A stretch of 64,000 nt of DNA from NCBI GenBank assembly GCA_037574385.1, contig GCA_037574385.1_4529.1, one strand, 5' to 3'. The notes under the pieces are model-generated. The model worked only from the letters and a program-made list of their open reading frames with translations, did no database searches and had not been told where the DNA came from. Positions 24,249 through 59,089 of the stretch are shown piece after piece. Positions within the stretch are counted from its first letter, which is position 1, and each line of letters opens with the position of its first letter. The translations under genes were made by a program, and so were the position numbers. Origin of the DNA: a phage.

Positions 24249-25155
24249 TAATTACACTTGTTAATTTAGAAAGTCCAGATTTTACAAAGTACGAATAAAT
24301 CTTGCCTTTAGGTTGTGGTTTATATGAGTTATAATACTCTATAATGGTTGAAGCAATATTATCAGGGATATAATCAAAATCAATTAGAACCAAATTTTCT
24401 TGGTACCGTTTATATTCTTCTGCACTTAATAATACTTCAGCTTGAGAACGGTCATTAGCAATTGCTTCAATAATCGTTGTTTTCATGCTTGGAGTTCGTT
24501 CGCCTTCAACTCGAGTAAACCAGAAATCACCACGAACTCGAACAGACGCAACACCATCTTTACGGTCGCCTTTAAGAATTTTAGTCATGCAATCAATTTC
24601 GGCAGAACCATTCTTAATTTTAACCCATTTTTTCTGCGGTGGCGACCACTGTTTAACGTTAGGGTATTTGTGTAATTGTGTAAAGTCACCATCTGATGCA
24701 ACAATACACACCTTATGACCGGCTAATGACAAATATTTAGTTAATACACCGATATGGTCATCTGCTTCGTATTTGTCAATATCCATTACAACGTATGGCA
24801 TATATTTCTTAATCTCATCAACGACTTGATGGAGTGCAGTAAAATATCCTTCCCAATCCCACTTTGAAGCTTCACGATCGGTTTTACGATTTTTCTTATA
24901 ATAGTAAGCAAAGTCGCGTCGCCAATACCCAGAAGTAGCGTTATCCATGCACAATACAAATTTTGTATAACCTTGCTTACGGAACATCACTACGTTTTTA
25001 CGAATTGAATTCAAGATTACATGGCGAACCATCGGAACAGTAATTTTATCACCGTCTTCAAAGTTGTTTAATGCAGCTGCTAATGCAATGTTACTAAAGT
25101 CTGCAAGTGCAATACCTTCTTTGTAATCTTCATCCAACATCATTTCTAAATCCAT
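24238..25155 (-). CDS. rnh: RNase H / 5'-3' flap exonuclease
   Basis: 305 aa, same as T4 RNase H; divergently oriented from gene 34 as in T4. Confidence 0.8.
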   Translation of the reverse strand: MDLEMMLDEDYKEGIALADFSNIALAAALNNFEDGDKITVPMVRHVILNSIRKNVVMFRKQGYTKFVLCMDNATSGYWRRDFAYYYKKNRKTDREASKWDWEGYFTALHQVVDEIKKYMPYVVMDIDKYEADDHIGVLTKYLSLAGHKVCIVASDGDFTQLHKYPNVKQWSPPQKKWVKIKNGSAEIDCMTKILKGDRKDGVASVRVRGDFWFTRVEGERTPSMKTTIIEAIANDRSQAEVLLSAEEYKRYQENLVLIDFDYIPDNIASTIIEYYNSYKPQPKGKIYSYFVKSGLSKLTSVINEF

Positions 25156-25188
25156 ATGAACCTCTTGTTCAGTTAGTCAACTTGGACT

Positions 25189-25217
25189 ATAGTAACATAC
25201 TAGTTCGAAAGCGTAAA
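25189..25217 (-). promoter_or_regulatory. Early promoter for rnh (divergent from gene 34 late promoter)
   Basis: ATTTACG-N18-TACTAT-AGTCC on - strand in the rnh/34 divergent intergenic region. Confidence 0.4.
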
Positions 25218-25243
25218 TAGTCTTTTACTCATTTATAAATAGT

Positions 25244-25251
25244 AAAATAGA
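25244..25251 (+). promoter_or_regulatory. Late promoter (TATAAATA) for gene 34 operon
   Basis: Exact TATAAATA about 25 nt upstream of gene 34 ATG, followed by SD AAGAGGA. Confidence 0.6.
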
Positions 25252-25275
25252 ACACATAATGATAAGAGGACTACC

Positions 25276-28200
25276 ATGGTTGACATCAAACGTAAGTTCA
25301 GGGCCGAAGATGGTCTTGACGCAGGCGGTGATAAGATAGTTAACGTTGCGCTTGCTGACCGCACAGTTGGCACCGATGGCGTGAACGTTGACTTTTTGGT
25401 GCAAGAAAACACCGTACAGAATTATGACGAGACGCGCGCGTATACAAAAGATTTTATTGTTCTTTATGATAATCGTTTTTATCAAGCTTTAAACGATATT
25501 CCAGCTCCGGCAGGCCCTTTCTCTTTGGCTAAATGGAAGGCAACTCGTACAGATGCAGAATGGATTACAGTTCAAGGCGGAGATTTCCAATTATCAGTAG
25601 GTAACTCTATCGCGGTTGATACTTCAGCTGGCACTGATATTAATTTCACTTTGCCTCAAAATCCTTTAGATGGCGATACAGTTATTTTGTCTGATATTGG
25701 TGGTAGAGTAGGCTATGTAAAAGTTCAAATTACTGCAGAGGCTCAAAGTATTGTAAACTTTAGAGGACAACAGGTTCGTTCAGTTTTAATGACGCACCCA
25801 AAATCTAAAATGGTCTTCATTTTTAGCAACCGCCTATGGCAAATGTATGTTTCTGATTACGAACGTAATGCAGTCACAGTAACTCCTGCTAAGCCATATC
25901 AGGCGCAACCTAATGATTTTATCATTCGACGTTTTACATCAGCCGCTCCTATTAATATTACATTGCCTCGTAATGCTAATAATGGCGATATTATTAATTT
26001 AGTTGATTTAGACAAATTAAACCCATTATATCACACAATTGTCAAAACTTACGATGAAACAACTTCTATACGAGAAGCTGGTGTTCATGTAGCAGAAGGA
26101 CGTAATACTGCGGAAGCATTCTTTGTTTATGATTCTGCTAATAGCTTATGGCGTGTTTGGGAAGGTGACCAGAAATCTCGTTTACGTATAGTTCGTAATG
26201 ATACTGATTTACACCCTAATGAAGAAGTTCTTGTTTTTGGAACTAATAATGATACAATCTCGACGGTAAATCTTACTTTGCCTACAGATATTTTGTCTGG
26301 CGATACTGTTAAAATATCGTTGAATTATATGCGTAAAGGGCAAACTGTAAAAATTAAAGCTGCTGAAGGCGATACAATTGCTAGCAGTATTTCTTTATTA
26401 CAGTTCCCAAAACGTTCGGAGTATCCACCTGATGCACAATGGGTTTCTGTTAGTGAGCTGGAATTTAATGGTGATACTTCGTATGTACCTGTACTTGAGT
26501 TAGCTTATATAGAAGATTATTCATCTGAAACAAAATATTGGGTAGTTCAACAAAACACCGTAACCGTCGAACGAGTCGATGCATCGAGCAATACAACTAG
26601 AGCTCGTTTAGGTGTTATTGCGCTTGCTTCTCAAGCGCAAGCAAATGTTGATTTAGAAAATGCTCCTGGTAAAGAACTGGCTATTACTCCGGAAACATTA
26701 GCAAATCGTACAGCAACTGAAACTCGTCGTGGTATTGCTCGTATTGCAACAACTGCACAAGTTAACCAGAATACCGATTTTGCATTCCAAGACGACTTGA
26801 TTATTTCTCCTAAGAAATTGAACGAACGTACAGCAACTGAAACCCGTAGAGGTGTTGCTGAAGTTGCAACTCAGGCTGAAACTAATGCTGGCATAGATGA
26901 TACCACTATTATTACTCCTAAGAAATTGGATGCCCGTCAAGGTTCTGAAGTTTTATCTGGTATTGTAAAATACACATCTACGACTGGTACTACAGCTGCT
27001 ACTATTCGTGGTAATGCTGGGACTAACGTTTATAACAAAGCTGTAGATAATTTAACTATTTCTCCAAAGGCTCTTGACCAGTATAAAGCTACCCCTACTC
27101 AACAGGGCGCAGTAATTCTTGCTATTGAAAGTGAAGTTATCGCTGGCGAATCACAAGCTGGTTGGGCTAATGCTGTAGTGACCCCTGAAACTCTGCATAA
27201 GAAAACTTCTACTGATGGGCGTATTGGTTTAATTGAAATTGCTACGCAAGCAGAAACTAACACTGGAATTGATTATACTAGAGCAGTAACGCCTAAGACG
27301 TTAAATGATAGGAAAGCTACGGAAGGATTATCCGGCATAGCCGAAATTGCTACGCAAGTTGAATTTGATACTGGAACTGACGATACTCGTATCTCGTCTC
27401 CACTGAAAATTAAAACTCATTTTGATTCTTCTGACCGTACCAGTGTTAATTCTGATTCCGGACTTATTGAAGAAGGAACCTTGTGGAACCATTATACTCT
27501 TGATATTTCTAAAGCAAATGAAACACAACGTGGTACACTTCGCGTAGCAACCCAAGCAGAATCTAATGCAGGAACTTTAGATGATGTTCTTATTACTCCT
27601 AAAAAGCTTTTAGGGACTAAGTCCACTGAAACGTCTGAAGGCGTAATTAAGGTTGCTACTCAGGCTGAAACTGTAACAGGAACTTCTGCTAATACTGCTG
27701 TATCTCCTAAGAATTTAAAATGGATTGTCCAGAATGAACCAACATGGGCTGCTACTACTGCAATAAGAGGTTTTGTTAAAACTTCATCAGGTTCAATTAC
27801 ATTCGTTGGTAATGATACAGTTGGTTCAACACAACCTTTAGAATCATATGAAAAAAATAGCTATGCGGTGTCACCATATGAATTAAACCGTGTACTTGCT
27901 AACTATTTGCCATTGAAAGCTAAAGCCGTAGATAGTAATCTGTTAGATGGTCTAGATTCTCTTCAGTTCATCCGTAGAGACATCGACCAGACGGTTAATG
28001 GTTCTTTAAGTCTTACTAAGCAGACCAACCTGAGTGCTCCTTTAGTATCTACAAGCACTGCTTCTTTTGGGTCCGAAGCATCTGTTACTCGTAGATTAAC
28101 TCTTAACGACTCTAGCGGTTCTGAAATAGTTTTCACTAAAGGAACCCAATCTCTTAGTAATAAAGAGAATTTCGTTGTTAGAGCATGGGGTAATAGCGCT

Positions 28201-29109
28201 ACAGATGGTGCCCGTGATACAGTATTTGAAGCGGGTGACGAAACAGGATACCATTTCTATTCTCAGCGCGCTTCTGATAATAAAGTATCATTTAATATTA
28301 ATGGAACACTTTATTCAACAGGCATTGTTTCTACAAATGGATTAAATGTTACAGGTGTTTCTACCTTTACCGGGCCTATTAGTGCTACAGGCGAAATTGT
28401 TTCTAGTTCTCCTATTGCATTCAGAGCTATTAACGGTAACTATGGTGTTATGCTTTATAATGCTGGTGACAGTTCTTATATTGCATTAACTAACTCAGGT
28501 GACCAGACCGGGACGTTTAATAACTTACGCCCGATCACGATTAACAATGCCACAGGATTAGTTCGTCTTGACAATGGTGTTCAAATCACAAGTGGTGCAA
28601 CAATAACTACCGGTGGGTTAACTGTAAATAACAGAATTATTTCTAACGGCGTTAAAACTGCCACGGTTTATACCGATAAACCAACAGCTTCTACTGTAGG
28701 TTTTTGGTCTATTGACATTAACGATTCTGCTGTATATAGCCAATTCCCTGGATATTGGACGCGTGATAACAAAGGTAACCGTGACCAAGAAATTAAATAT
28801 CCTGGTACTTTGACTCAATTTGGTAATAGCTTAGATTCGCTTTATCAGGATTGGATTTGTTATCCTACTGGTGCAAATGGTGGTAGTATTCGATATACTC
28901 GTACCTGGCAGAAAAATAAAGATGCTTGGACCTCATTTGCAATGGTATTTGATAGTGGCAACCCACCTTCACCTAGCGATGTCGGTGCTATCCCATCCGA
29001 TAATGCTGTGATTGGAAACCTTACTGTTCGAGACTTCTTACAATTAGGAAATGTGAGAATTGTTCCAGACCCGGTTAACAAAACCGTTAAATTTATATGG
29101 GTTGAATAA
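25276..29109 (+). CDS. 34: Long tail fibre proximal subunit gp34
   Basis: 1277 aa; internal tandem about 40-aa repeats (TATETRRG-A-IAT-AQ/E..); first gene of the + strand fibre operon with late promoter TATAAATA upstream. Confidence 0.85.
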   Translation: MVDIKRKFRAEDGLDAGGDKIVNVALADRTVGTDGVNVDFLVQENTVQNYDETRAYTKDFIVLYDNRFYQALNDIPAPAGPFSLAKWKATRTDAEWITVQGGDFQLSVGNSIAVDTSAGTDINFTLPQNPLDGDTVILSDIGGRVGYVKVQITAEAQSIVNFRGQQVRSVLMTHPKSKMVFIFSNRLWQMYVSDYERNAVTVTPAKPYQAQPNDFIIRRFTSAAPINITLPRNANNGDIINLVDLDKLNPLYHTIVKTYDETTSIREAGVHVAEGRNTAEAFFVYDSANSLWRVWEGDQKSRLRIVRNDTDLHPNEEVLVFGTNNDTISTVNLTLPTDILSGDTVKISLNYMRKGQTVKIKAAEGDTIASSISLLQFPKRSEYPPDAQWVSVSELEFNGDTSYVPVLELAYIEDYSSETKYWVVQQNTVTVERVDASSNTTRARLGVIALASQAQANVDLENAPGKELAITPETLANRTATETRRGIARIATTAQVNQNTDFAFQDDLIISPKKLNERTATETRRGVAEVATQAETNAGIDDTTIITPKKLDARQGSEVLSGIVKYTSTTGTTAATIRGNAGTNVYNKAVDNLTISPKALDQYKATPTQQGAVILAIESEVIAGESQAGWANAVVTPETLHKKTSTDGRIGLIEIATQAETNTGIDYTRAVTPKTLNDRKATEGLSGIAEIATQVEFDTGTDDTRISSPLKIKTHFDSSDRTSVNSDSGLIEEGTLWNHYTLDISKANETQRGTLRVATQAESNAGTLDDVLITPKKLLGTKSTETSEGVIKVATQAETVTGTSANTAVSPKNLKWIVQNEPTWAATTAIRGFVKTSSGSITFVGNDTVGSTQPLESYEKNSYAVSPYELNRVLANYLPLKAKAVDSNLLDGLDSLQFIRRDIDQTVNGSLSLTKQTNLSAPLVSTSTASFGSEASVTRRLTLNDSSGSEIVFTKGTQSLSNKENFVVRAWGNSATDGARDTVFEAGDETGYHFYSQRASDNKVSFNINGTLYSTGIVSTNGLNVTGVSTFTGPISATGEIVSSSPIAFRAINGNYGVMLYNAGDSSYIALTNSGDQTGTFNNLRPITINNATGLVRLDNGVQITSGATITTGGLTVNNRIISNGVKTATVYTDKPTASTVGFWSIDINDSAVYSQFPGYWTRDNKGNRDQEIKYPGTLTQFGNSLDSLYQDWICYPTGANGGSIRYTRTWQKNKDAWTSFAMVFDSGNPPSPSDVGAIPSDNAVIGNLTVRDFLQLGNVRIVPDPVNKTVKFIWVE
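26690..27720 (+). repeat. In-frame tandem repeats (about 40 aa / 120 nt unit) inside gene 34
   Basis: Protein motif TATETRRG(I/V)A-(I/V)AT-A(Q/E)-N-(G/T)-D recurs at least six times with ITPKKL-type linkers. Confidence 0.6.
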
Positions 29110-29117
29110 GAGGTTAT

Positions 29118-30242
29118 ATGGAAAAATTTATGGCAAGGTTTGGACAGGGATACGTCCAAACGCCATTTTTATCGGAAAGCAATTCAGTTAGATTTAAACT
29201 AAGTATAGCGGGTTCATGCCCGCTTTCAACAACTAATCCGTATATTTTGTTCCAAAATGAGCCTTTAGGGTTGCAGTCTTTTGGTATTGGACTAAATGTT
29301 AGGGTAATAAATCCGGAAAATGGAACTATAGTTGATAGTAAATTATACAATTTTGCGCCTACAAATAATGCAACTTCAGCTGCATTTATTTCGTTTGTTA
29401 ATACATACGCAGATAATTTCATTTTCGCATTTATTTCTAATAACAAATTTAATTTGCCGCCAGAAATAATTGAATGGTTTAAAGCTGCTGGGAGTTCAGT
29501 TATACCGTCAATTGAAGTTGCTAGTCTTGTTGATATTTCATATTCAGCGTTTTATGTTTCAGGTAAAAATACTATTGCATTAGAACACATAAAATACAGT
29601 AATAAGAAAACAATTTCGGATTACTCAACTCCATTAGATATTGTATATGACTCTATTGCTGATATAGGTGCTACCGGCTATCCTAGACGTACATATGAAG
29701 CTCTAGAAACGTTTTTATCTCCTGTTGGAGGAACTAACAATGAAATAAAAAGGGTGCCTACATCATCCCTTGTTACTCCTATCGCAAACTATGGATTAAA
29801 GCCTACAGATTTTCTTTATTTGAAATTTCAATTAATGGCTGATGAAGCATTACTAGAGGAAGGAACCACAAGACTTTCAATTCGTTTCTTTAAGTCTCCA
29901 TCTAGCTCTCCTATATCGTCTAAAGATATAAACTTTGACGGAACTGCTGGTGAATGGAAGCTATATGAAGAATACGTTGAAATACCAGCTGAAGCCGATG
30001 GCTTTACAGTATATTGTTACCGTACGGCCCCAGTCGGTCAAGGTGGACTAAGAAATGTTATTTTTACTGAAGTATCATGTAACGGAAGTATAGCAAAACC
30101 TGCCGAGTTTGGCCTAAATGGTATTCGTGCTAATTACATCGATGAATCATTAACCGGTAATGATATAATGGACTTGCCTACTCAGTTATCTAACGACACA
30201 GGTAAGGTATTTGGGCAGGAATTTAAAGAGTACACAGAATAA
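29118..30242 (+). CDS. 35: Long tail fibre hinge protein gp35
   Basis: 374 aa; position and size as T4 gp35. Confidence 0.75.
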   Translation: MEKFMARFGQGYVQTPFLSESNSVRFKLSIAGSCPLSTTNPYILFQNEPLGLQSFGIGLNVRVINPENGTIVDSKLYNFAPTNNATSAAFISFVNTYADNFIFAFISNNKFNLPPEIIEWFKAAGSSVIPSIEVASLVDISYSAFYVSGKNTIALEHIKYSNKKTISDYSTPLDIVYDSIADIGATGYPRRTYEALETFLSPVGGTNNEIKRVPTSSLVTPIANYGLKPTDFLYLKFQLMADEALLEEGTTRLSIRFFKSPSSSPISSKDINFDGTAGEWKLYEEYVEIPAEADGFTVYCYRTAPVGQGGLRNVIFTEVSCNGSIAKPAEFGLNGIRANYIDESLTGNDIMDLPTQLSNDTGKVFGQEFKEYTE

Positions 30243-41661: not shown

Positions 41662-42282
41662 TTAAAGTTGAAGATACCACCCGTTGTAGTTGCTCTTGCG
41701 GACGATTTTCTTTAGGTCTTCATGGTCTCCCACGAACTTTATAGAATAAGAGAAGACGTCAGGTGAGGTTTCTTTGACATTCAATATAATAATACAGTCT
41801 GCAACTCGATGATTCAGGAATGGCCCTATGTTGATTCCGTTGCCACCCGGATAATCACCACTGTATCCTGTGGTAACAGAAATCCATTTAGAATCCATCT
41901 GATGTGTCTTGACTTCTACACGAATTCCACAATATTTAGGATGGGCTAACACGTCCCATGCATATGTGTACGGGTCTTCTACGTCTTCATTACCTTTATT
42001 AACATATCCGTCTAGCCAATTTGCTACTACATACTCTGCAAAGACTGCAACCTTACAACGTCGAACTACATCTTCTTTGTTTTGGTCTGGATTTTGGCTC
42101 AATGAATATCGAGCAGTGTCAGCAATCTTCACCTTCATTTCACTAGTCAAAAACTCATTCGACAGGATAAATGTCGGAAGATTCTTCAGTCTCAATAGTC
42201 CCAAGTTCGTCTTTACCATAGATACCTCTGATGTGTAGTTCGCCAAAATAAATGCGGTCTCCTTCTTCAAGATAGTTAGCAT
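41662..42282 (-). CDS. Putative PD-(D/E)xK-type nuclease; positional candidate for endonuclease IV (denB)
   Basis: Contains D...EVK (AWDVLAHPKYCGIRVEVKTH); sits between ndd and rIIB where T4 has denB. Start uncertain: the tracked start overlaps the upstream gene and internal Mets are possible. Confidence 0.4.
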   Translation of the reverse strand: MLTILKKETAFILANYTSEVSMVKTNLGLLRLKNLPTFILSNEFLTSEMKVKIADTARYSLSQNPDQNKEDVVRRCKVAVFAEYVVANWLDGYVNKGNEDVEDPYTYAWDVLAHPKYCGIRVEVKTHQMDSKWISVTTGYSGDYPGGNGINIGPFLNHRVADCIIILNVKETSPDVFSYSIKFVGDHEDLKKIVRKSNYNGWYLQL

Positions 42283-42442
42283 CTACCGGCGGGATTTCAA
42301 TAACAACTTCGTCGCATTCTAACCAGCCGTAGTGTGCATCACCAGGATGTTTTACCAATTTAGCACAATAAACTGATTTACACTTATGATGACCACGAAG
42401 ATTAGCAATTTTGGATTCTGATACGTCAAATGGATGAATCAT
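42155..42442 (-). CDS. Hypothetical protein
   Basis: Tracked ORF 42155..42493 probably starts at internal ATG (MIHPFDV) just after the rIIB terminator hairpin. Confidence 0.45.
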   Translation of the reverse strand: MIHPFDVSESKIANLRGHHKCKSVYCAKLVKHPGDAHYGWLECDEVVIEIPPVDANYLEEGDRIYFGELHIRGIYGKDELGTIETEESSDIYPVE

Positions 42443-42461
42443 AATTACCCCTAAAGAAAAA

Positions 42462-42477
42462 GGGGACCGAAGTCCCC
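42462..42477 (-). terminator. UUCG-tetraloop hairpin after rIIB
   Basis: GGGGAC-UUCG-GUCCCC just after the rIIB stop. Confidence 0.55.
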
Positions 42478-42482
42478 AATTA

Positions 42483-43418
42483 TTATTCTGCAAACAATTC
42501 AGTAACGTCTGAAATTACTTCATAACGACAAGTACGCATCTTAGCATCACCATAGTCAACTGGGATGGATACAACATCACGTGGATGAACTTTAACCTTA
42601 ACAACTTTATCTGAGCTTGAACCAAAGTGGCGAATATAAGATTTAGCACAAACGTGGAGACCACGAGAACAGGTTTGAGTATCATCGTCGTTAACTCGAG
42701 TACGAGGCATTGAAACAACTTTACCTGGGGAGTTATCAAATGTACCACTATAGCAGTCTAAATAGTCCTTACGAACTACTTTCCACGCGTAGAAATGCCC
42801 ATCTTCAGTGATTTCAATATCATTTGCAACCAAGAAGTCGAATAAACGTTGTACAGCTTTTTCGCTCGGGTTTTCTAACAGGTTTTCAAGGAACGGCAGA
42901 TAGAATTTAAAGTCTTCGCCTTTTTCCATGGAATCAATAATACGATTAACCAGACCTGAACGAATTTCTATACCTTGATAAAATAAACTACCACCTTCAA
43001 TAGTAACATTACCGTCAACAAACTTAGTAATAGCTTTCTTGACGTTAATAAGTTCAACAGCTTTACTAAGGTTTCCTGCGACCAGATTAGCTTTAATTTC
43101 TTCAAAATTTGCATGACTTGATGGGGTCGCATTGTATGCTACGCGTCCTTCAATGATTGAAATAAATTTAGATGACGCGTTCCATACGATTTCTGGACGA
43201 TGTCCGCCGATAATAGGTTCATCATTTTCTGGGATCTGTTCTTCGTCTTCAAATTCAGCTGCTTTCTCTTCAGCTTTAAAATTCTTAACAATCTTACGAA
43301 GAGTATCTGTTGAAATGTCGAAGTAATCGGCAATTTCTTTACGAGTCCATTTGCCCGATTCAACCAGGCCGTAAGCTTCTAACTGTTCTTCTTGGGACAA
43401 GCATTTAATATTGTACAT
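42483..43418 (-). CDS. rIIB: rIIB membrane-associated protein
   Basis: 311 aa (T4 rIIB 312 aa); N-terminus MYNIKCL as in T4; followed by rIIA. Confidence 0.85.
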   Translation of the reverse strand: MYNIKCLSQEEQLEAYGLVESGKWTRKEIADYFDISTDTLRKIVKNFKAEEKAAEFEDEEQIPENDEPIIGGHRPEIVWNASSKFISIIEGRVAYNATPSSHANFEEIKANLVAGNLSKAVELINVKKAITKFVDGNVTIEGGSLFYQGIEIRSGLVNRIIDSMEKGEDFKFYLPFLENLLENPSEKAVQRLFDFLVANDIEITEDGHFYAWKVVRKDYLDCYSGTFDNSPGKVVSMPRTRVNDDDTQTCSRGLHVCAKSYIRHFGSSSDKVVKVKVHPRDVVSIPVDYGDAKMRTCRYEVISDVTELFAE

Positions 43419-43427
43419 AATGTTTCC

Positions 43428-45641
43428 TTATTTGGCCGCTTCCACGGCCTTCATGAATTTAACGATTTGAGCGACTTGTTCTTTAGAAAGAGTACCACGT
43501 CGTCCCATGTATTCTGACACAATATGATAATTGGTTTCGAATTCAATAACCATTTTATCATCATTATCGTAAGCATTATCTTTAAGCTTATCGAAAATTT
43601 TAGCACACAATTCTAACTTTTTATTCAGTTCTCTGTTAGTAGCACCTGAGAATCGATTCCATCCCCAACGATTATTTACCGTTGAGAGTTTTGCAAAATC
43701 TTTACTGATTTCTTTGTTTTTAGAGCTAAAATACTTACTAAGGAAGTTAAGCTCTTCGTTACGAGTAATATGATTCAAATAAGGCTGTGCTCTACGACTT
43801 GGTGATACATACTCATCATAATCCACTTTATCAATTAGCGTAATATAGTCATTAATTGATTTTTCGAACAAGCATTCTACTTCGCCAAGTTTACGAACTT
43901 TCTTAGCAATCTGTGGACGAACTACAGTGAACTCTTTAATACCTGACAAATCAGCAATACGGGTCAAGAAATTGGAGTCATAGTTCAACCAACCTTTATC
44001 TGCGTCAAGACATTCAGCATTAGAACGATTACGAACTATAGCATAACCTTGGATTTCATCTGCTTCACTTGCTGGAATAAAGAGGTCTTCTGATACCCAA
44101 ACATCGTTTTCATTCTTAAAGAATCGATGAGCACTTGGCGATTTAGGACGAGGCTCATTAGTCCGTTTCCTGACTTCAATCCATGGCTTAACGATTTGTA
44201 AAAGCTCTGAAGTCTTGTACATGTTAATGTTGTCGCCGTCAAAGATAACTTTAAGGCGTTCCAGAAGTTTCATTGCATCTTCGTCTGTAGGGTCAACGAA
44301 TAGTACGCTTTTACCAAAACCGCGTGGAACTTTACCGGTTAATTTAACCTCGTCTTTAGACATTTCAATTGAATTAAGAGCTCGCATTAATGGAACGCGT
44401 CCCTTAACGTCGTCAATAACAATTTCAACGTTTTTAATGTTAATGCCAATCAGGCTGTTAATTGAAATAGTTGATGATGAGCTACCACTTTCACGAATAC
44501 GACGAAGACGAGGGGATTCAACGATATCGTATACGACGCCAAGATTACACCACTCAGGCCCCATTTTAAAACGTTTATACAACTCAGAATAAGTTAGTTG
44601 TTCTTTAGAGTATTTCAGTGATTCAATATTAGACCCAGCCTTTTCCATGTATTTACGAGCGGTATAGCCAAGAGAATCAATTTCACGGAACACATGACGT
44701 GGGTATTTACAATCAATCCATTTCTTAGAATCTTCAGCGAACAATTTAGCATCGATTTCTGCAACGCGTTTATGGATATTTGCTACTGTACGTTTATCAA
44801 ACGACAATGCTTCACGAGACGGAGCTACATCTAGTTCACCCATAGGGAATTTAATATAAGCTGTAGTGCATCGTGTCATCATCCATGTTTGTTCTTTAAT
44901 AACACTTCCGATTGGATAAACAATACCACCATAAACAGCCATGATATTACCACGTTCACCCCGTGGAGCTTCCTTGGCCAAATATACATCGTCAAATTCT
45001 GGGAAGTATTTAATATCTTTAACACCACGAACTTCTGCTATATCACCTAAAGGACGCATAACATATGCAATTTCAGATGCGAACTTTTCAAAATCTTCTG
45101 GGTTAACCGGTACGACTACTTCTACACCCGTACGGTCATCAGGACCCATCTTATCTACAAAGGTTGGCTTAATTTGAGGACCCGTGTCATCTTGGTAGAT
45201 TACGTAACCACGAACTTCACCGTTGTGATAAGACGTAAGGTTAAACGTATCGGTATATGCTAGCGGAGCTTTAGAGCCGAGCCCGAATCCACCAATGAAA
45301 TCGTTGCTCGATGTTTTAGTTGAAGCAAAATATGAGTTATAGATTCCTGGCTCTTCGTCATTACCTCGAATAGTGAAATCACTCATACCAGGACCAAAGT
45401 CTCGAACTACAAAACGTGGGTCTAAACGACCTGGAGCCTGAACAATAAACTTATCAGTGCAACCGTTAAGAATTTGTCCATCAATACAGTTTGTGATTAA
45501 TTCACGTACACAAGCCAATTCTTTGTTTGTATAAAGGTCATTAGACAAAATCTTATAAACTTTGCTATTGCCTTGAATAGTGAATGCTGTACTCTTACCG
45601 CCTGAACCAATAATCGTTTCTTTAGCCGTTTCAATAATCAT
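43428..45641 (-). CDS. rIIA: rIIA protein (GHKL ATPase-like)
   Basis: 737 aa (T4 rIIA 725 aa); adjacent to rIIB. Confidence 0.85.
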   Translation of the reverse strand: MIIETAKETIIGSGGKSTAFTIQGNSKVYKILSNDLYTNKELACVRELITNCIDGQILNGCTDKFIVQAPGRLDPRFVVRDFGPGMSDFTIRGNDEEPGIYNSYFASTKTSSNDFIGGFGLGSKAPLAYTDTFNLTSYHNGEVRGYVIYQDDTGPQIKPTFVDKMGPDDRTGVEVVVPVNPEDFEKFASEIAYVMRPLGDIAEVRGVKDIKYFPEFDDVYLAKEAPRGERGNIMAVYGGIVYPIGSVIKEQTWMMTRCTTAYIKFPMGELDVAPSREALSFDKRTVANIHKRVAEIDAKLFAEDSKKWIDCKYPRHVFREIDSLGYTARKYMEKAGSNIESLKYSKEQLTYSELYKRFKMGPEWCNLGVVYDIVESPRLRRIRESGSSSSTISINSLIGINIKNVEIVIDDVKGRVPLMRALNSIEMSKDEVKLTGKVPRGFGKSVLFVDPTDEDAMKLLERLKVIFDGDNINMYKTSELLQIVKPWIEVRKRTNEPRPKSPSAHRFFKNENDVWVSEDLFIPASEADEIQGYAIVRNRSNAECLDADKGWLNYDSNFLTRIADLSGIKEFTVVRPQIAKKVRKLGEVECLFEKSINDYITLIDKVDYDEYVSPSRRAQPYLNHITRNEELNFLSKYFSSKNKEISKDFAKLSTVNNRWGWNRFSGATNRELNKKLELCAKIFDKLKDNAYDNDDKMVIEFETNYHIVSEYMGRRGTLSKEQVAQIVKFMKAVEAAK

Positions 45642-45653
45642 ATTTTTCTCTCA

Positions 45654-45854
45654 TCACAAGTTACGTTTAAAAATTTCTGCTACTTCAAGAAGTTCTTCTT
45701 TAGTAGCTGTATCGGTTTGTATTTTATATCGAATTTCTTTAAAGCGTTCTTTAAAGGACTCTGCTGACTCGATATCAAAAAATCTTTGGATAAGCCGGAA
45801 TTCCCGGAGCACTGCTTTATCAAAAAGTTCCAAGTCCACGTTATATGTTCTCAT
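45654..45854 (-). CDS. Hypothetical protein (rIIA.1 position)
   Basis: 66-aa ORF immediately upstream of rIIA. Confidence 0.5.
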   Translation of the reverse strand: MRTYNVDLELFDKAVLREFRLIQRFFDIESAESFKERFKEIRYKIQTDTATKEELLEVAEIFKRNL

Positions 45855-45879
45855 AATATTCTCTTCAGTAGATTCCTAG

Positions 45880-45930
45880 GGCACTATTACTAAAGACCAT
45901 ATAATCTATCATCTTATGTGTAATAGTGCC
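45880..45930 (-). other. 11-bp perfect inverted repeat (GGCACTATTAC / GTAATAGTGCC) separated by about 29 nt
   Basis: Lies between the glycosyltransferase stop and the rIIA.1 start; loop contains a TATAAT-like element. Confidence 0.45.
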
Positions 45931-45946
45931 TCAGGCGATTCAGGAT

Positions 45947-47047
45947 TTACGCTGTGAAGATTTTATCCCACATTGCAACAACTGCATCTCGGTTATACTT
46001 CTTCCATACTGCTTCAGCACGTTTAACTCGAGCTTCGTATGTGTCAGTGAATTCTAATACAGCTTTTGTGTAAAGCGCAACTACTTCTTTCTTAGGAGTA
46101 GAGGAATCAATTTCTACACGCACAGTATCTGGGTCATATTCGAATGTCGCATGCGGATAATCCTTAAAAACTAACTGAATTACAGGGACACCTTTAGAAA
46201 TGGCTTCAATAGAACTATTCTCTACCGTACCTGTGTCAGGACACGTATTAATAAGTGCTTTAGCTGTTTTAAGACGTTCCATAATTTCACTGTGTGGAGC
46301 ATCAATAATAACAGGATACTTAGCCGGTGGTGCCCATTTACTAGGACAGTATCCTGCGCCATTTTCGCCTAGTGCTTTAATCGCTTCAAGAGCAACATCA
46401 GTACGACGCATTTTAGTGTCATAACGTTGTGCACTAATAATCAGATCAGTCGCCGGAAGAACTTCAGGTTTCTCATTCAAACAAATAACCGGATAATCTT
46501 CGGCTTCAAACAACGGATTTGCTCGCCAATAATCATAATCAATTTTGTCAGTCAGACCTGAAGTCATATAACAATATTTGCGTTCAAATTCACGGAAGGC
46601 TTTAGTAGGAGCATAACTCTTACCACCGTTCTTATGAATTTGAATAGTCTGGTCCCAAATTTGAACAATGCCACGAGATACCGGCTCAAACGGTGTTGCC
46701 ATAAAATTCTTATGAACTTTAGAGAGACCTGCGTCTTTAATTGCCTGAACGGTTAGTTTAGTCGGTTCCATTGTAACAACGAAATCGTACTCATTAATGC
46801 CGGCTAGTTCAACAATCTTACGAGCCATAGTATAACTCATACCTAGACTGAATTTAGTCAGATGACCAACAGGATGATGATTAACCTTCCAATCACCAAA
46901 CGTGTCATTATCAAAGCCGATATAATCAATATCAGCACCGATGGACACAAGATATTTCAACACATTTAAATGTACTGCTTCAAGACCACCTTGTACACGT
47001 TCTGGGTTAAACGGGACTGCGCGAGATGGGATAAACATAACTTTCAT
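45947..47047 (-). CDS. GT-B fold glycosyltransferase (GT4-like); candidate DNA hypermodification enzyme
   Basis: 366 aa; N-terminal MKVMFIPSRAVPFNPERVQGGLE and C-terminal TCPDTGTVENSSIEAISKGVPVI resemble GT4 donor-binding motifs; sits where T4 carries gene 60/mobA. Confidence 0.6.
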   Translation of the reverse strand: MKVMFIPSRAVPFNPERVQGGLEAVHLNVLKYLVSIGADIDYIGFDNDTFGDWKVNHHPVGHLTKFSLGMSYTMARKIVELAGINEYDFVVTMEPTKLTVQAIKDAGLSKVHKNFMATPFEPVSRGIVQIWDQTIQIHKNGGKSYAPTKAFREFERKYCYMTSGLTDKIDYDYWRANPLFEAEDYPVICLNEKPEVLPATDLIISAQRYDTKMRRTDVALEAIKALGENGAGYCPSKWAPPAKYPVIIDAPHSEIMERLKTAKALINTCPDTGTVENSSIEAISKGVPVIQLVFKDYPHATFEYDPDTVRVEIDSSTPKKEVVALYTKAVLEFTDTYEARVKRAEAVWKKYNRDAVVAMWDKIFTA

Positions 47048-47074
47048 AATTAAGCCTTATTAAAATTAAAATGA

Positions 47075-47090
47075 AGCTCCCGAAGGAGCT
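47075..47090 (-). terminator. UUCG-tetraloop hairpin after gene 39
   Basis: AGCUCC-UUCG-GGAGCU overlapping the gp39 stop. Confidence 0.5.
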
Positions 47091-48907
47091 TAGGACATCC
47101 ATTCTTTACGAAGTTCTGAATCATCACCCAACAACATTTCAAAGAGTTCTTTCCAATTTTCAGGAAGTTTAACTACGTCGTACACAGGGTTTTGAATCAT
47201 TTCACGATATTCTGACTTTTCAAGGGAGCCCAATCCCTTGATGTATCGAATACTATGCTTAGGCAGTGTATCTTTAGCTTCTTCATACTCAGCTACAGTA
47301 TAAAACCATTTTTGAGTTTTGCCGATTTGTGCAATAATTACAGGTGTTTTAACAAAGCGAATACGTCCTTGTTCAAACAATTCAGGCCAATTACTAAAGA
47401 AAGCAAGCAAAGCCGGATAGATACTTCCAAGACCGTCATGATCGGCATCGGTCATAATTGCAATATTACGATAGTTCGTATTCTCTGCCTTTTCACCAAG
47501 AATAAGACCTGTGATAGCACAGATATCAAAGAGCTCTTTGTTCTTCATCATATCGGCATATGACATACCCCAGCTATTCATCACCTTACCACGTAATGGG
47601 AATCCGCCGTGTAGTTCACGGTCACGAACATCAATGAGATATCCAATTGCCGAATCACCTTCTGTTAAAAACAATGTCGTATCTGCATCTTTACCGCATT
47701 GGTTAGCTTTAATATGCTTATGAACCTTAGCTTTAGTTGCCTTTTTAGCTGCTTTAGTTTCTGCAGCCTTTTCTGCTGCCAATTTACGAGCTAATGCTGC
47801 TTCAACAATAGGCATAATCAAGGCTTCGTTTTTAAGAAGTGCCTGAGCAATTTTCTTAGCATCTAATTGGATATGATTACGAATATCACCATACGTTGAC
47901 GTTAAACGTTCTTTAGTCTGAGAATCAAAACGCATGTTGCTCATGTCTCTAATAAACATCAACATTGTGAGACATTCTTTAACACGAGCTTTAGTGACTT
48001 CAATACCCTTATATTTCTTTTTAATACCCGGCAAAAGATGTTCGCAAATATCATCCATTACACATTCAACATGATGACCACCATTTTTAGTATGGATGTT
48101 ATTCACATAAGTTAAATGACGGAAGCCATCCGGTGATGTTGTGAATGCTATAGAGACTTTATCATTTTCTTGAATGATGTTATCTTCACCAAATTGTTTA
48201 GCAAATCGTTTAAAATTGCCATCAACCTTTTTACCATTAAATGTGAACTTGATATCAGGATAAACGACTGCCAATGTTTGAAGTCGGTCTAAAGTAATAT
48301 CTAAATAAATTTGAGATAAATTATGCTCTTCAAATGAAGTGAAATCAGGAGTGAAGATTACTTTAGTGCCTTTACCTTTAGATTTCTTAGAAGACCATGA
48401 TTTGTTTTCCATTCCGTTTGAACAGTTAACAGTGATTTCATTTTCGCCATCTGACGTGATGCCTGTAAACAACGTAGAGAAGATATTAGTTAAACTACTC
48501 CCGACGCCGTTCATACCACCTGTCTTGCGTTCAGAGTCGTCACCAAAGTTACCACCGGCCTTTGGAATAGTCCAGGCTGCTACAGGCCCAGGAATTTGTT
48601 CACCCGTTTGGTCGGTAACTAAACCTTGAGGAATACCACGTCCGTTATCTTCCACTGAAACTTGATTATTTTTAATTTGCACATCAATTTTATTTGCAAA
48701 CTTAAATGATGTACGAATAGCTTCATCAACCGAGTTGTCAATAATCTCATCGATTAATTTAACCAGACCAGGAACATATTCAACTTGTTGATATTTACCA
48801 AACAAAAAACGCTCATGTGCTTCTTTAGCTGAAGAACCAATATACATACCACTACGTTTCTTAATATGTTCTACATCTGACAGTACCTTAATTTCATTTT
48901 TAATCAT
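47090..48907 (-). CDS. 39: DNA topoisomerase II large subunit, fused gp39+gp60 (GyrB-like)
   Basis: 605 aa in one ORF; GHKL ATPase N-terminus (DNSVDEA, GRGIP) plus Toprim region; T4 splits this into 39 (516 aa) and 60 with a translational bypass. Confidence 0.85.
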   Translation of the reverse strand: MIKNEIKVLSDVEHIKKRSGMYIGSSAKEAHERFLFGKYQQVEYVPGLVKLIDEIIDNSVDEAIRTSFKFANKIDVQIKNNQVSVEDNGRGIPQGLVTDQTGEQIPGPVAAWTIPKAGGNFGDDSERKTGGMNGVGSSLTNIFSTLFTGITSDGENEITVNCSNGMENKSWSSKKSKGKGTKVIFTPDFTSFEEHNLSQIYLDITLDRLQTLAVVYPDIKFTFNGKKVDGNFKRFAKQFGEDNIIQENDKVSIAFTTSPDGFRHLTYVNNIHTKNGGHHVECVMDDICEHLLPGIKKKYKGIEVTKARVKECLTMLMFIRDMSNMRFDSQTKERLTSTYGDIRNHIQLDAKKIAQALLKNEALIMPIVEAALARKLAAEKAAETKAAKKATKAKVHKHIKANQCGKDADTTLFLTEGDSAIGYLIDVRDRELHGGFPLRGKVMNSWGMSYADMMKNKELFDICAITGLILGEKAENTNYRNIAIMTDADHDGLGSIYPALLAFFSNWPELFEQGRIRFVKTPVIIAQIGKTQKWFYTVAEYEEAKDTLPKHSIRYIKGLGSLEKSEYREMIQNPVYDVVKLPENWKELFEMLLGDDSELRKEWMS

Positions 48908-48956: not shown

Positions 48957-48972
48957 AAGGGCCGAAGCCCTT
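48957..48972 (-). terminator. UUCG-tetraloop hairpin
   Basis: AAGGGC-UUCG-GCCCUU. Confidence 0.45.
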
Positions 48973-58271: not shown

Positions 58272-58553
58272 TTACAATTTAGCAGCTTGGACTGCTTTAT
58301 TGGCTTCAGTCATTTTAGCTAGATTTTCAGCAGTAGGATTAGCAATGTATTCGGCTGTAGCTTGAGCAAAAACATTATGAGTTTCGATTACATTTTTAGC
58401 ATTTTCAGTATTCATATCAATTTCTTGTTTAGATAAATTTTTTAGTTGATTGGCTAAGAGTTCTACAAAGATTTCAACATTAGCGTTTTCAATTATAGCA
58501 TTAATATGCTTCTTACGAGCTTTCTTAAGCTGACGTTTATTTAAACGAGACAT
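58272..58553 (-). CDS. Hypothetical basic/alpha-helical protein
   Basis: 93-aa ORF abutting gene 56. Confidence 0.45.
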   Translation of the reverse strand: MSRLNKRQLKKARKKHINAIIENANVEIFVELLANQLKNLSKQEIDMNTENAKNVIETHNVFAQATAEYIANPTAENLAKMTEANKAVQAAKL

Positions 58554-59089
58554 TAATAACCTCGGTCCTGACGAGCAAAGTTCTCGGCGTTTTTCAGGTA
58601 ATACAGTTTAAAGATTTCTTCTGCAGTCAGTCCAAGGCCATGGAACATATTCAGAACAAAGTGGAGGATATCAATCATTTCGAATTTAATTTCGAGCTGG
58701 TCTTCAGGAGACAACTCATCAATACGACGATTACGGAATTCAGCATGTTGTACTTTCCAAGGCTTCCATACACTGCTGGCAGCTTTTTCACCATTGCTCA
58801 TACCACCAAGTGAAGTCAGCAGTTCACGGAATTCATCATCAATATAATCTTTCTGATTACGCAGCCAATCAACAACATCGCCAGCAGTGGCCAATTCATC
58901 AGGATGTTTGTTATGTTCAGGCTTGTCATTTGCCAGACGAACCTGTAAAGATTTCTGCATATCAAGCATAACTTGCAGTGGGTCTTTATCTTCGTGAATC
59001 AGAGCATTAAAATAAGCTTCTTCTGCTTTATCAACACCAGAAATAAGTTGTGAACATTCGTTAAAGTGTGCCATTATTTTTCCTTTCAA
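58553..59089 (-). CDS. 56: dCTPase/dUTPase gp56 (MazG-like nucleotide pyrophosphohydrolase)
   Basis: 178 aa (T4 gp56 171 aa); MAHFNEC, DPLQVMLDMQ, DELATAGDVV, SPEDQLEIKFE, IFKLYYLKN, NFARQDRGY match T4 gp56. Confidence 0.85.
   Translation of the reverse strand: MKGKIMAHFNECSQLISGVDKAEEAYFNALIHEDKDPLQVMLDMQKSLQVRLANDKPEHNKHPDELATAGDVVDWLRNQKDYIDDEFRELLTSLGGMSNGEKAASSVWKPWKVQHAEFRNRRIDELSPEDQLEIKFEMIDILHFVLNMFHGLGLTAEEIFKLYYLKNAENFARQDRGY

Follow-up and report, generated by a model that had tools for sequence, protein, structure and literature searches.

Gene organization at the rIIA-gene 39 junction

The analysed window is a 64-kb stretch of phage DNA whose source is a Mosigvirus, i.e., a RB69-like phage. 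One ORF of this window, located between rIIA.1 and gene 39, was studied together with its surroundings and with one distant gene of nucleotide metabolism, and the relevant features are the following:

43428..45641, rIIA, on the same flank of the transferase ORF as rIIA.1
45654..45854, minus strand, rIIA.1, the downstream neighbour (Pfam T4_RIIA1, E 2.1e-30)
45875..45935, minus strand, extended hairpin with an 11-bp perfect stem (GGCACUAUUAC/GUAAUAGUGCC) plus outer pairs
45947..47047, minus strand, GT-B glycosyltransferase coding sequence, 366 aa, 41.3 kDa, pI 6.3, ATG start
47055..47058, minus strand, Shine-Dalgarno-like AAGG, 7 nt 5' of the ATG at 47047, read from the sequence
47074..47091, minus strand, UUCG-tetraloop hairpin AAGCUCC-UUCG-GGAGCUU, a terminator-like scan match overlapping the gene 39 stop codon
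47090..48907, minus strand, gene 39, the upstream neighbour (Pfam DNA_gyraseB, HATPase_c, Toprim, TOPRIM_C)
58553..59074, minus strand, dCTPase (T4 gp56 homolog, equivalent of RB69p028; tblastn with T4 gp56: 69% identity, E 4e-79)

The 366-aa ORF that an earlier note on this DNA had claimed at 45947-47047 is real, with these exact coordinates, on the minus strand and ATG-initiated. A chance reading frame is excluded, since the ORF is conserved across phages and a near-identical protein has a crystal structure. Upstream, the gene 39 product (605 aa) corresponds to an unsplit large subunit of DNA topoisomerase II, with the equivalents of T4 genes 39 and 60 fused and the GyrB, HATPase, Toprim and TOPRIM_C domains in a single ORF, as the note had also proposed. 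In the T4 map, the split topoisomerase gene contains 60.1 and mobA, and only 54 bp separate rIIA.1 from gene 60; therefore, the transferase ORF constitutes an insertion relative to T4. Its assignment to the slot where T4 carries gene 60 and mobA is thus imprecise, since the insertion lies between rIIA.1 and the 3' end of the intact topoisomerase gene and not at the position of mobA.

The hairpin between gene 39 and the transferase is followed by a U-rich tract and folds at -10.5 kcal/mol, a value indistinguishable from shuffles at such length (z -0.76); it resembles an intrinsic terminator or an mRNA-stabilising element. The extended hairpin falls within the 92 nt that separate the transferase stop codon from rIIA.1, with a minimum free energy of -28.5 kcal/mol (z -4.47) that none of 200 shuffles equalled, and it may act as a terminator or processing element. 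At this latter position, a terminator or promoter is annotated in some related records.

Identity, distribution and fold of the transferase

The encoded enzyme is not new, as it corresponds to the already published RB69 ORF003c/gp3. A comparison with RB69-type genomes, suggested in the earlier note, retrieved RB69 gp3 (NP_861693.1), a protein of the same length and 99.2% identity (3 substitutions: E16D, N85H and T327I) that is likewise encoded between rIIA.1 and gene 39; it is the sister-phage version of this gene, with no difference of substance. This protein was proposed to be an arabinosyltransferase in 2018 (PMC6024577). In the BASEL phage Bas47, the gene is annotated as 'putative hmC-arabinosyltransferase'. 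The NicPhage protein shares 99.7% identity with the window ORF, PHROG 8302 is matched over residues 1-366 (E 1.6e-222), and the chain of PDB entries 9IQZ (apo) and 9IR0 (UDP complex), a glycosyltransferase of phage HY126 released on 2025-07-16, is ~98% identical. The HY126 enzyme reportedly belongs to a study of the 'Afh' arabinofuranosylation pathway by He et al. in Nat Chem Biol 2026. The window protein is homologous over its full length to the family formed by RB69 gp3, the HY126 glycosyltransferase and gp76-77 of Acinetobacter phage DLP3. The gene, the family, the structure and the proposed role have all been published before, so that our scan contributes a correct annotation and not a discovery.

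In 156 phage records the ORF has counterparts with 95-100% amino-acid identity, and homologs with ~42% identity over the full length are found in 55 records of Acinetobacter phages; the whole family comprises 212 phage records, restricted to Mosigvirus, Acinetobacter phages and one Tegunavirus with a divergent homolog. This is a very small family, with 11 clusters in an exhaustive search of 1.84 billion representatives, and word-indexed searches of 5.8 billion proteins revealed almost no wider family. One metagenomic homolog bears the automatic name 'glycosyltransferase involved in cell wall biosynthesis'. The 'interrupted' copy of Shigella phage JK45 was considered as a natural knockout and discarded, for the gene is intact there and is accompanied by a partial 3' duplicate.

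The closest characterized homologs outside Mosigvirus are DLP3 gp77 and gp76 (43.1 and 41.2% identity to the window protein over the full length), which share with it the invariant GG loop, QRxD...R, TGTVE.xSxEA and HATxExDP. The two DLP3 paralogs share 57% identity and are encoded within the arabinosylation cluster, and in Acinetobacter phages the homologs are arranged in tandem at the end of the cluster, whereas the single Mosigvirus copy is located ~21 kb away from the cluster, in phages whose DNA goes no further than two arabinoses. The window protein branches outside the gp76/gp77 duplication and is co-orthologous to both paralogs. Between RB69 and DLP3, identity is 41-43% for this family, 46-48% for the first arabinosyltransferase of the pathway and 46% for the kinase-like gene, values that match a co-divergence of the three genes. 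The GC content is 0.399 for the transferase gene and 0.378 for the window. A recent horizontal acquisition at the rIIA-39 junction was rejected as the simplest reading, given the pathway-like divergence and a GC content near that of the surroundings.

The GT-B fold of the transferase is confirmed, with two Rossmann-like alpha/beta domains and a C-terminal domain that binds the nucleotide-sugar. In the structure comparison, the neighbours were GT4-like bacterial GT-B enzymes (e.g., PimA, WaaG, BshA, MshA, GtfA and a tetrahydrobiopterin glycosyltransferase), and not the T4 alpha- or beta-glucosyltransferase. An AF2 model built from a 5-sequence alignment (pLDDT 61.5), adequate for the fold and not for residue-level mechanism, superposed moderately on the HY126 structure (TM 0.52), which reflects the poor model and not a different protein.

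At the sequence level, scans of the window protein with Pfam and NCBIfam gave no match even at E<=1 (including PF00534, PF13692 and PF13439), divergent family members displayed only sub-threshold PF20706 GT4-conflict matches (E 0.003-0.07), and the domain scan did not bear out the name 'Glycosyltransferase subfamily 4-like N-terminal domain-containing protein' given by the PDB depositors; therefore, the 'GT4 motif' claim of the earlier note is unsupported by sequence models. By eye, the family-invariant stretches are the G20-G21 loop (N-terminal), Q-R208-Y-D...R214 and T-G-T-V-E276-N-S-S-I-E281-A-I-S-K-G-V-P-V. The motif of GT4 enzymes is E-x7-E in the C-terminal domain; here, E281-A282 is invariant and the position 8 residues upstream is an equally invariant glycine, G273, while the invariant E276 yields E-x4-E in place of E-x7-E, all as judged by inspection of the sequence. 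Thus, the GT4-like character holds for the fold and the structural neighbours, but the sequence models are blank and the first Glu of E-x7-E is absent. With respect to the bacterial GT4-type enzymes (PimA, MshA, BshA, WaaG, GtfA), the window protein is 8-16% identical, lacks this first Glu, and has a glycan on DNA as its proposed acceptor.

The T4 alpha- and beta-glucosyltransferases constitute CAZy families GT72 and GT63. They resemble the proposed enzyme in outline, being phage GT-B proteins that use a UDP-sugar to modify cytosines of duplex DNA after replication, with an anti-restriction function. No sequence homology of the window protein to either enzyme was detected, and hhalign of the family profile against both, as well as against the first arabinosyltransferase, revealed no relationship, although the single-sequence templates confer low sensitivity; these results are consistent with a non-T4 transferase.

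Proposed role as second DNA arabinosyltransferase

The modified base of Mosigvirus is arabinosylated 5-hydroxycytosine and not hydroxymethylcytosine (PMC13326640, PMC13390438). RB69 DNA contains mono- and di-arabinosyl-5-hydroxycytosine, for which the NMR structure beta-D-Araf-3-alpha-D-Araf-5hodC was obtained (PMC13326640), and in NicPhage DNA the mono- and di-arabinosyl forms occur at 1:4 (PMC13390438). According to Mahler 2025, as cited in PMC12923530 and PMC13216743, Bas46 and Bas47 are double-arabinosylated, and deletion of 'the arabinosyltransferase Aat', possibly this gene, in Bas46 is viable and sensitises the phage to a defence system. Thanatos, with mono-arabinosylated DNA, encodes only a gp46:47-type transferase, while the lineages with gp3-family members are those reported to be di- or tri-arabinosylated (PMC13326640). 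In both main studies the gp3 gene was assigned as second arabinosyltransferase (PMC13326640, PMC13390438), and the role of RB69 gp3 ('beta-arabinosyltransferase 2') is marked in one of them as a proposal, not experimentally confirmed (PMC13326640). In vitro, DLP3 gp76 and gp77 jointly convert RB69 DNA into the tri-arabinosyl form with UDP-arabinofuranose as donor; each is inactive alone, and activity was shown only for the third arabinose addition (PMC13326640). Hence, we infer the function of the single-copy Mosigvirus enzyme from these paralogs, which share with it the pathway and the UDP-Araf donor.

We propose that the window ORF encodes an accessory, second DNA arabinosyltransferase of Mosigvirus, a soluble two-domain GT-B enzyme with the UDP-sugar in its C-terminal domain, a reading to which we assign a probability of about 0.8. 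This role is suggested because the core enzyme of the pathway is a different and far more widespread protein, RB69 gp46:47 (349 phage records from many host genera); because the gp3 family is confined to lineages with di- or tri-arabinosylated DNA; because the Acinetobacter homologs lie within the arabinosylation cluster; and because DLP3 gp76 and gp77 lengthen arabinose chains on DNA in vitro. A lineage-specific sugar transferase acting in DNA hypermodification, as anticipated by the earlier note, is supported by RB69 gp3, the HY126 structure with UDP, the DLP3 homologs and the negative sequence comparison with the T4 enzymes; from its comparison with RB69-type arabinose enzymes, the sugar and the non-T4 transferase were right, but not the hydroxymethylcytosine, the base being 5-hydroxycytosine.

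In the proposed pathway, following published work on close relatives, dCMP would be replaced by 5-hydroxy-dCMP through a flavin-dependent homolog of thymidylate synthase, and UDP-D-arabinofuranose would be made from ribulose-5-phosphate by a phage isomerase, a kinase/uridylyltransferase and a phosphatase. The first and unrelated transferase, RB69 gp46:47, would place alpha-D-Araf on the 5-oxygen of cytosine, and the window enzyme, acting on DNA, would add a second D-arabinofuranose, donated by UDP-Araf, at O3 of the arabinose already in place. The predicted product, beta-D-Araf-(1-3)-alpha-D-Araf-O5-cytosine, is the major species in Mosigvirus DNA, and the longer glycan would shield the phage DNA more broadly from host nucleases and other defences. 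We infer the second addition by the window protein and the beta-1,3 linkage, each as the most likely assignment.

Regarding the remaining pathway, the dCTPase is the only other gene of cytosine replacement found in the window, and its RB69 equivalent, RB69p028, is listed as a pathway member (PMC13326640). No match to RB69 p045-p055 was found within the 64-kb window; the window does not reach the genes for arabinose activation, for 5-hydroxy-dCMP synthase or for the first transferase, and RB69 synteny would place the start of the arabinosylation cluster ~3 kb beyond the window end. Near-identical genomes, including ATK47, JS09, p000v, AlbertHofmann and others, carry both a gp3-type gene and the first transferase, and it is from genomes such as ATK47 that the rest of the pathway is predicted to be present in the source phage.

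Counted against the main reading is the stereochemistry, as the GT4 enzymes closest to it in structure retain the anomeric configuration and a beta product is predicted after an alpha one from the same donor. If both arabinoses (alpha, then beta-1,3) derive from the same UDP-D-Araf, one of the two GT-B transferases retains and the other inverts. Anomeric kinases usually give the alpha-anomer for D-sugars; were the phage UDP-D-Araf the alpha-anomer, the window enzyme would be inverting on a scaffold whose GT4 relatives are retaining, an arrangement that we regard as possible, if somewhat doubtful. Two features would fit an inverting reaction, namely the missing first Glu of E-x7-E and an invariant glutamate in the N-terminal domain, E94, as a candidate base.

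Other functions were weighed against the second-transferase role. The window enzyme could instead be the first, base-proximal transferase on the modified cytosine, with gp46:47 doing something else, as in the 2018 proposal (Thomas et al.) and the Bas47 annotation, as the earlier note also implied, and in agreement with purified DLP3 transferases being inactive on 5hoC-DNA (PMC13326640). However, ~137 phage records contain a gp46:47-type enzyme plus the remaining cluster genes but no gp3-family member, mono-arabinosylated Thanatos has only the gp46:47-type enzyme, gp76 and gp77 use already arabinosylated DNA, and the base is 5-hydroxycytosine rather than hmC, all of which makes a base-proximal role very unlikely. 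An acceptor other than DNA, such as host lipopolysaccharide, a cell-wall precursor, a protein or a small molecule, would be in line with the acceptors of the top structural neighbours (lipids, polysaccharides, proteins or small molecules), with the cell-wall name of the metagenomic homolog, and with a protein that is not basic (pI 6.3). Nevertheless, the T4 alpha-glucosyltransferase is likewise acidic (pI 6.1), the family is restricted to T4-like phages equipped with the 5-hydroxycytosine arabinosylation pathway, it is embedded in the arabinosylation cluster of Acinetobacter phages, and its homologs modify DNA in vitro; we thus consider a non-DNA substrate highly improbable.

Closer to the second-transferase role, and a refinement of it rather than an alternative, is a chain extender that needs a partner (gp46:47 or a homo-oligomer), is processive, or is relaxed in linkage specificity. 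It is suggested by the joint activity of DLP3 gp76 and gp77, by the co-orthology of the Mosigvirus enzyme to both paralogs, and by the several chains of the HY126 sequence in the PDB entries; set against these is the single copy in Mosigvirus, where DNA ends at two arabinoses, and we deem such behaviour unlikely.

Significance for phage DNA hypermodification

Arabinosylated 5-hydroxycytosine is a recently defined DNA hypermodification of phages, which blocks many restriction enzymes and CRISPR-Cas systems and is recognised by some type IV systems, and the number of arabinoses alters which defences are evaded. The transferase gene is likely the determinant of the second arabinose in Mosigvirus, and thus its presence predicts di-arabinosylated DNA in the source phage. 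Such a prediction may be of use for annotation, for the choice of therapeutic phages and for foreseeing sequencing or cloning problems, and the enzyme is a possible enzymatic tool.

Genomic setting of the putative arabinosyltransferase gene

The 366-aa ORF singled out in the earlier note was recovered exactly, with an ATG start preceded at 7 nt by a ribosome-binding site (AAGG). Its GC content (0.399 vs 0.378 for the window) and base composition are ordinary, and the DNA of this region is 98-99% identical to that of many Mosigvirus (RB69-like) coliphages, e.g., ATK47, Shf125875 and NicPhage, the NicPhage protein being 99.7% identical to the one encoded here. In the RB69 reference, the same slot is occupied by a product of equal length, RB69p003 ("RB69ORF003c hypothetical protein"), from which the window protein differs at 3 residues. 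The features considered are the following:

45947..47047, minus: GT-B glycosyltransferase ORF, 366 aa, ATG start
45654..45854: rIIA.1, downstream in the sense of transcription (Pfam T4_RIIA1, E 2e-30)
43428..45641: rIIA, downstream
47090..48907: topoisomerase II large subunit (unsplit equivalent of T4 genes 39 and 60), upstream (Pfam GyrB, HATPase, Toprim, TOPRIM_C)
45875-45935, minus: stable extended hairpin (folding vs shuffles), in the 92 nt that separate rIIA.1 from the transferase stop codon
47074-47091, minus: UUCG-tetraloop hairpin overlapping the gene 39 stop codon
58553..59074, minus: dCTPase, 69% identical to its homolog T4 gp56

The upstream gene encodes a single 605-aa topoisomerase subunit with all four domains, matching the fused gene 39 described previously. 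The transferase had also been assigned to the slot of T4 gene 60 and mobA; however, it does not occupy the mobA position, because T4 genes 60.1 and mobA constitute an insertion splitting the topoisomerase gene (order rIIA.1, 60, 60.1, mobA, 39) and the gap from rIIA.1 to gene 60 is just 54 bp. Relative to T4, the ORF is thus an additional gene, placed after the 3' end of an unbroken topoisomerase gene and before rIIA.1.

The hairpin at 45875-45935 displays a perfect 11-bp stem (GGCACUAUUAC/GUAAUAGUGCC) and a structured 29-nt loop, with a folding energy of -28.5 kcal/mol (z -4.5) equalled in 0 of 200 shuffles; no U-tract follows it, and some related records carry a terminator or promoter annotation at the equivalent site. 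The scan gave five terminator-like sites where 2.1 would be expected. Short GC-rich UUCG-type tetraloop hairpins lie at the end of gene 39 (47074-47091) and of its upstream gene (48957-48972), the latter being legible as a hairpin on either strand. Immediately downstream of rIIB, two minus-strand ORFs share 128 nt in different frames; one has 206 aa (41662..42282), and the other, with a TTG start, has 112 aa (42155..42493).

Glycosyltransferase fold and extent of the family

Scans of the window protein against NCBIfam and current Pfam (hmmscan) gave no match even at E<=1, either to a GT4 N-terminal domain or to any other, and its only PHROGs match was family 8302, of "unknown function". A profile search of PDB sequences returned one match, full-length and near-identical, to the crystal structures 9IQZ (apo) and 9IR0 (with UDP), released on 2025-07-16. 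Foldseek lists these entries at 98% identity as "phage HY126 glycosyltransferase" and "phage HY126 glycosyltransferase with UDP"; the fold question is settled by structure.

Alignment of 10 family members (35-43% identity) revealed invariant residues in the N-terminal domain (G20-G21-L22, E94), at the start of the C-terminal domain (Q207-R208-x-D210...R214), and further along (T272-G-T-V-E276-x-x-S-x-E281-A-I...G286-x-P-V), together with a family-specific H299-A-T-x-E-x-D-P. The elements that bind the donor in GT4 enzymes have their counterparts here in the GG loop, the Arg pair and the Glu-Ala...Gly-x-Pro-Val helix. The canonical GT4 E-x7-E lacks its first Glu in the window protein, with G273 in its place. 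The protein is thus GT4-like in fold, yet falls outside GT4 by sequence tests. The PDB molecule name of the 98%-identical protein, [quoted passage not shown], apparently derives from more permissive automatic annotation.

The family is very small. A word-indexed search of 5.8 billion proteins yielded five 90%-identity clusters, and 11 clusters, 8 of them complete or almost complete in length, came from an exhaustive profile search with HMMER over 1.84 billion representatives at 50% identity, the next glycosyltransferase standing well apart at E 6e-4. On the one metagenomic contig inspected, T4-type DNA ligase and DsbA genes adjoin the family member. Among 50,697 phage records, 212 carry the family: 156 Mosigvirus-type genomes (at least 95% identity), 55 Acinetobacter T4-like phages (~42% identity, two copies each) and a single record named Tegunavirus with a divergent homolog (<60%), with no members at 60%-95% identity. 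In Shigella phage JK45 (MK962757.1, 1594-2004), classed as Tequatrovirus and Mosigvirus-like in sequence at this locus, the gene is intact, but its 3' end recurs behind it as a partial copy of 136 aa that carries its own hypothetical-protein annotation; this may reflect a true partial duplication in tandem or, so close to the end of the genome, an artefact of assembly.

Proposed role in addition of the second arabinose

The finding is not new: a name was given in 2018, the assignment was revised in 2025-2026, and a crystal structure dates from 2025. Arabinose was detected in RB69 DNA by Thomas et al. (Viruses 2018, PMC6024577), who relied on custom HMMs, HHpred and Phyre2 to propose ORF003c as the arabinosyltransferase. 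The chemistry was later revised (Lee et al., NAR 2026, PMC13326640): the base is 5-hydroxycytosine, with 5-hydroxy-dCMP made by a flavin-containing thymidylate-synthase homolog, and RB69 DNA carries mono- and di-arabinosylated forms, the disaccharide being beta-D-Araf-(1-3)-alpha-D-Araf on cytosine O5. Their table gives RB69p003 the name "beta-arabinosyltransferase 2" and makes gp46:47 the first transferase, in each case as a proposal, since the footnote gives experimental confirmation only to other entries; DLP3 gp76 and gp77, tandem homologs of the window protein from an Acinetobacter phage, jointly but not singly turned RB69 DNA tri-arabinosyl with UDP-arabinofuranose, and Thanatos, which has only a first-type transferase, is mono-arabinosylated (PMC13326640). 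Independently, a 1:4 ratio of 5-ara-dC to 5-ara-ara-dC was reported for NicPhage (PMC13390438). Mahler et al. (2025) are cited for Bas46 and Bas47 as double-arabinosylated, and for Bas46 without "the arabinosyltransferase Aat" as sensitised to a defence system; He et al. (2026), from which 9IQZ/9IR0 presumably stem, are cited for rebuilding the HY126 "Afh" pathway biochemically, with a bifunctional Ara5P kinase/UDP-D-arabinose pyrophosphorylase and a phosphatase among its enzymes. The earlier reading, a GT-B enzyme specific to this lineage that transfers arabinose to DNA, was right in kind; the hydroxymethylcytosine base is outdated, and the acceptor thereby implied is probably wrong.

The window protein shares full-length identity with gp77 (43.1%) and gp76 (41.2%), and no similarity to the first transferase (RB69 gp46:47, DLP3 gp79) by BLAST or hhalign. 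In a neighbour-joining tree, the Mosigvirus enzyme falls outside the clade of gp76-like and gp77-like proteins (57% identical to each other), which makes it a co-ortholog of the two chain extenders that were tested; by this topology, the gp76/gp77 duplication belongs to the Acinetobacter-phage lineage. We infer that the enzyme most likely performs the second arabinose addition. Acting on duplex DNA after replication, it would convert UDP-D-Araf and alpha-D-Araf-O5-cytosine to beta-D-Araf-(1-3)-alpha-D-Araf-O5-cytosine and UDP, its C-terminal domain holding UDP, by analogy, through R208, R214, E281 and the G-x-P-V helix, and its interdomain cleft receiving the DNA-borne arabinose. Others have shown by experiment the structure of the product in RB69, that the near-identical HY126 enzyme binds UDP, and that homologs extend chains on DNA. 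An alpha linkage is followed by a beta one, so that use of a single donor would require inversion by one of the two transferases; the nearest structural relatives of the window enzyme are retaining enzymes, and its E-x7-E is degenerate.

Pathway context and origin

Within the window, the only other hypermodification-pathway gene is that of the dCTPase, whose removal of dCTP allows complete replacement of C by modified cytosine. None of RB69 p045-p055 lies in these 64 kb; by synteny, the cluster would start ~3 kb past the right end. In RB69 it sits between uvsX and gene 43, where T4 has beta-gt and gene 42, with the chain extender ~21 kb away at the rIIA end. In DLP1 and DLP3, two homologs in tandem end the cluster (isomerase, kinase/uridylyltransferase, HAD phosphatase, 5hodCMP synthase, first transferase, kinase-like gene, two transferases). 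The RB69 reference (NC_004928) presents the first transferase (24597-25497, p046/p047) and the kinase/uridylyltransferase (28094-29780, p052/p053) as two ORFs each, whose halves align to single Acinetobacter-phage proteins; in the literature, these splits are explained by sequencing errors of the 2003 entry.

The first transferase occurs in 349 phage records, with hosts including Escherichia, Klebsiella, Serratia, Enterobacter, Proteus, Yersinia (six records), Kosakonia, Erwinia and Providencia, among others. Given this broad spread, against 212 records in three lineages, the window-protein family is accessory to a widespread core pathway. Between RB69 and DLP3, the window-type enzyme (41-43% identity) has diverged about as much as the first transferase (46-48%), the kinase-like gene (46%) and the neighbouring gp40 (37%), and the sugar-activating enzymes are more conserved (52-70%). 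Since its divergence is close to that of other pathway genes, the comparison speaks for a long-standing member of the pathway that was moved, or lost elsewhere, rather than for a gene newly acquired from a foreign source. As an annotation, the ORF is useful in that it predicts di-arabinosylated 5-hydroxycytosine DNA in the source phage.
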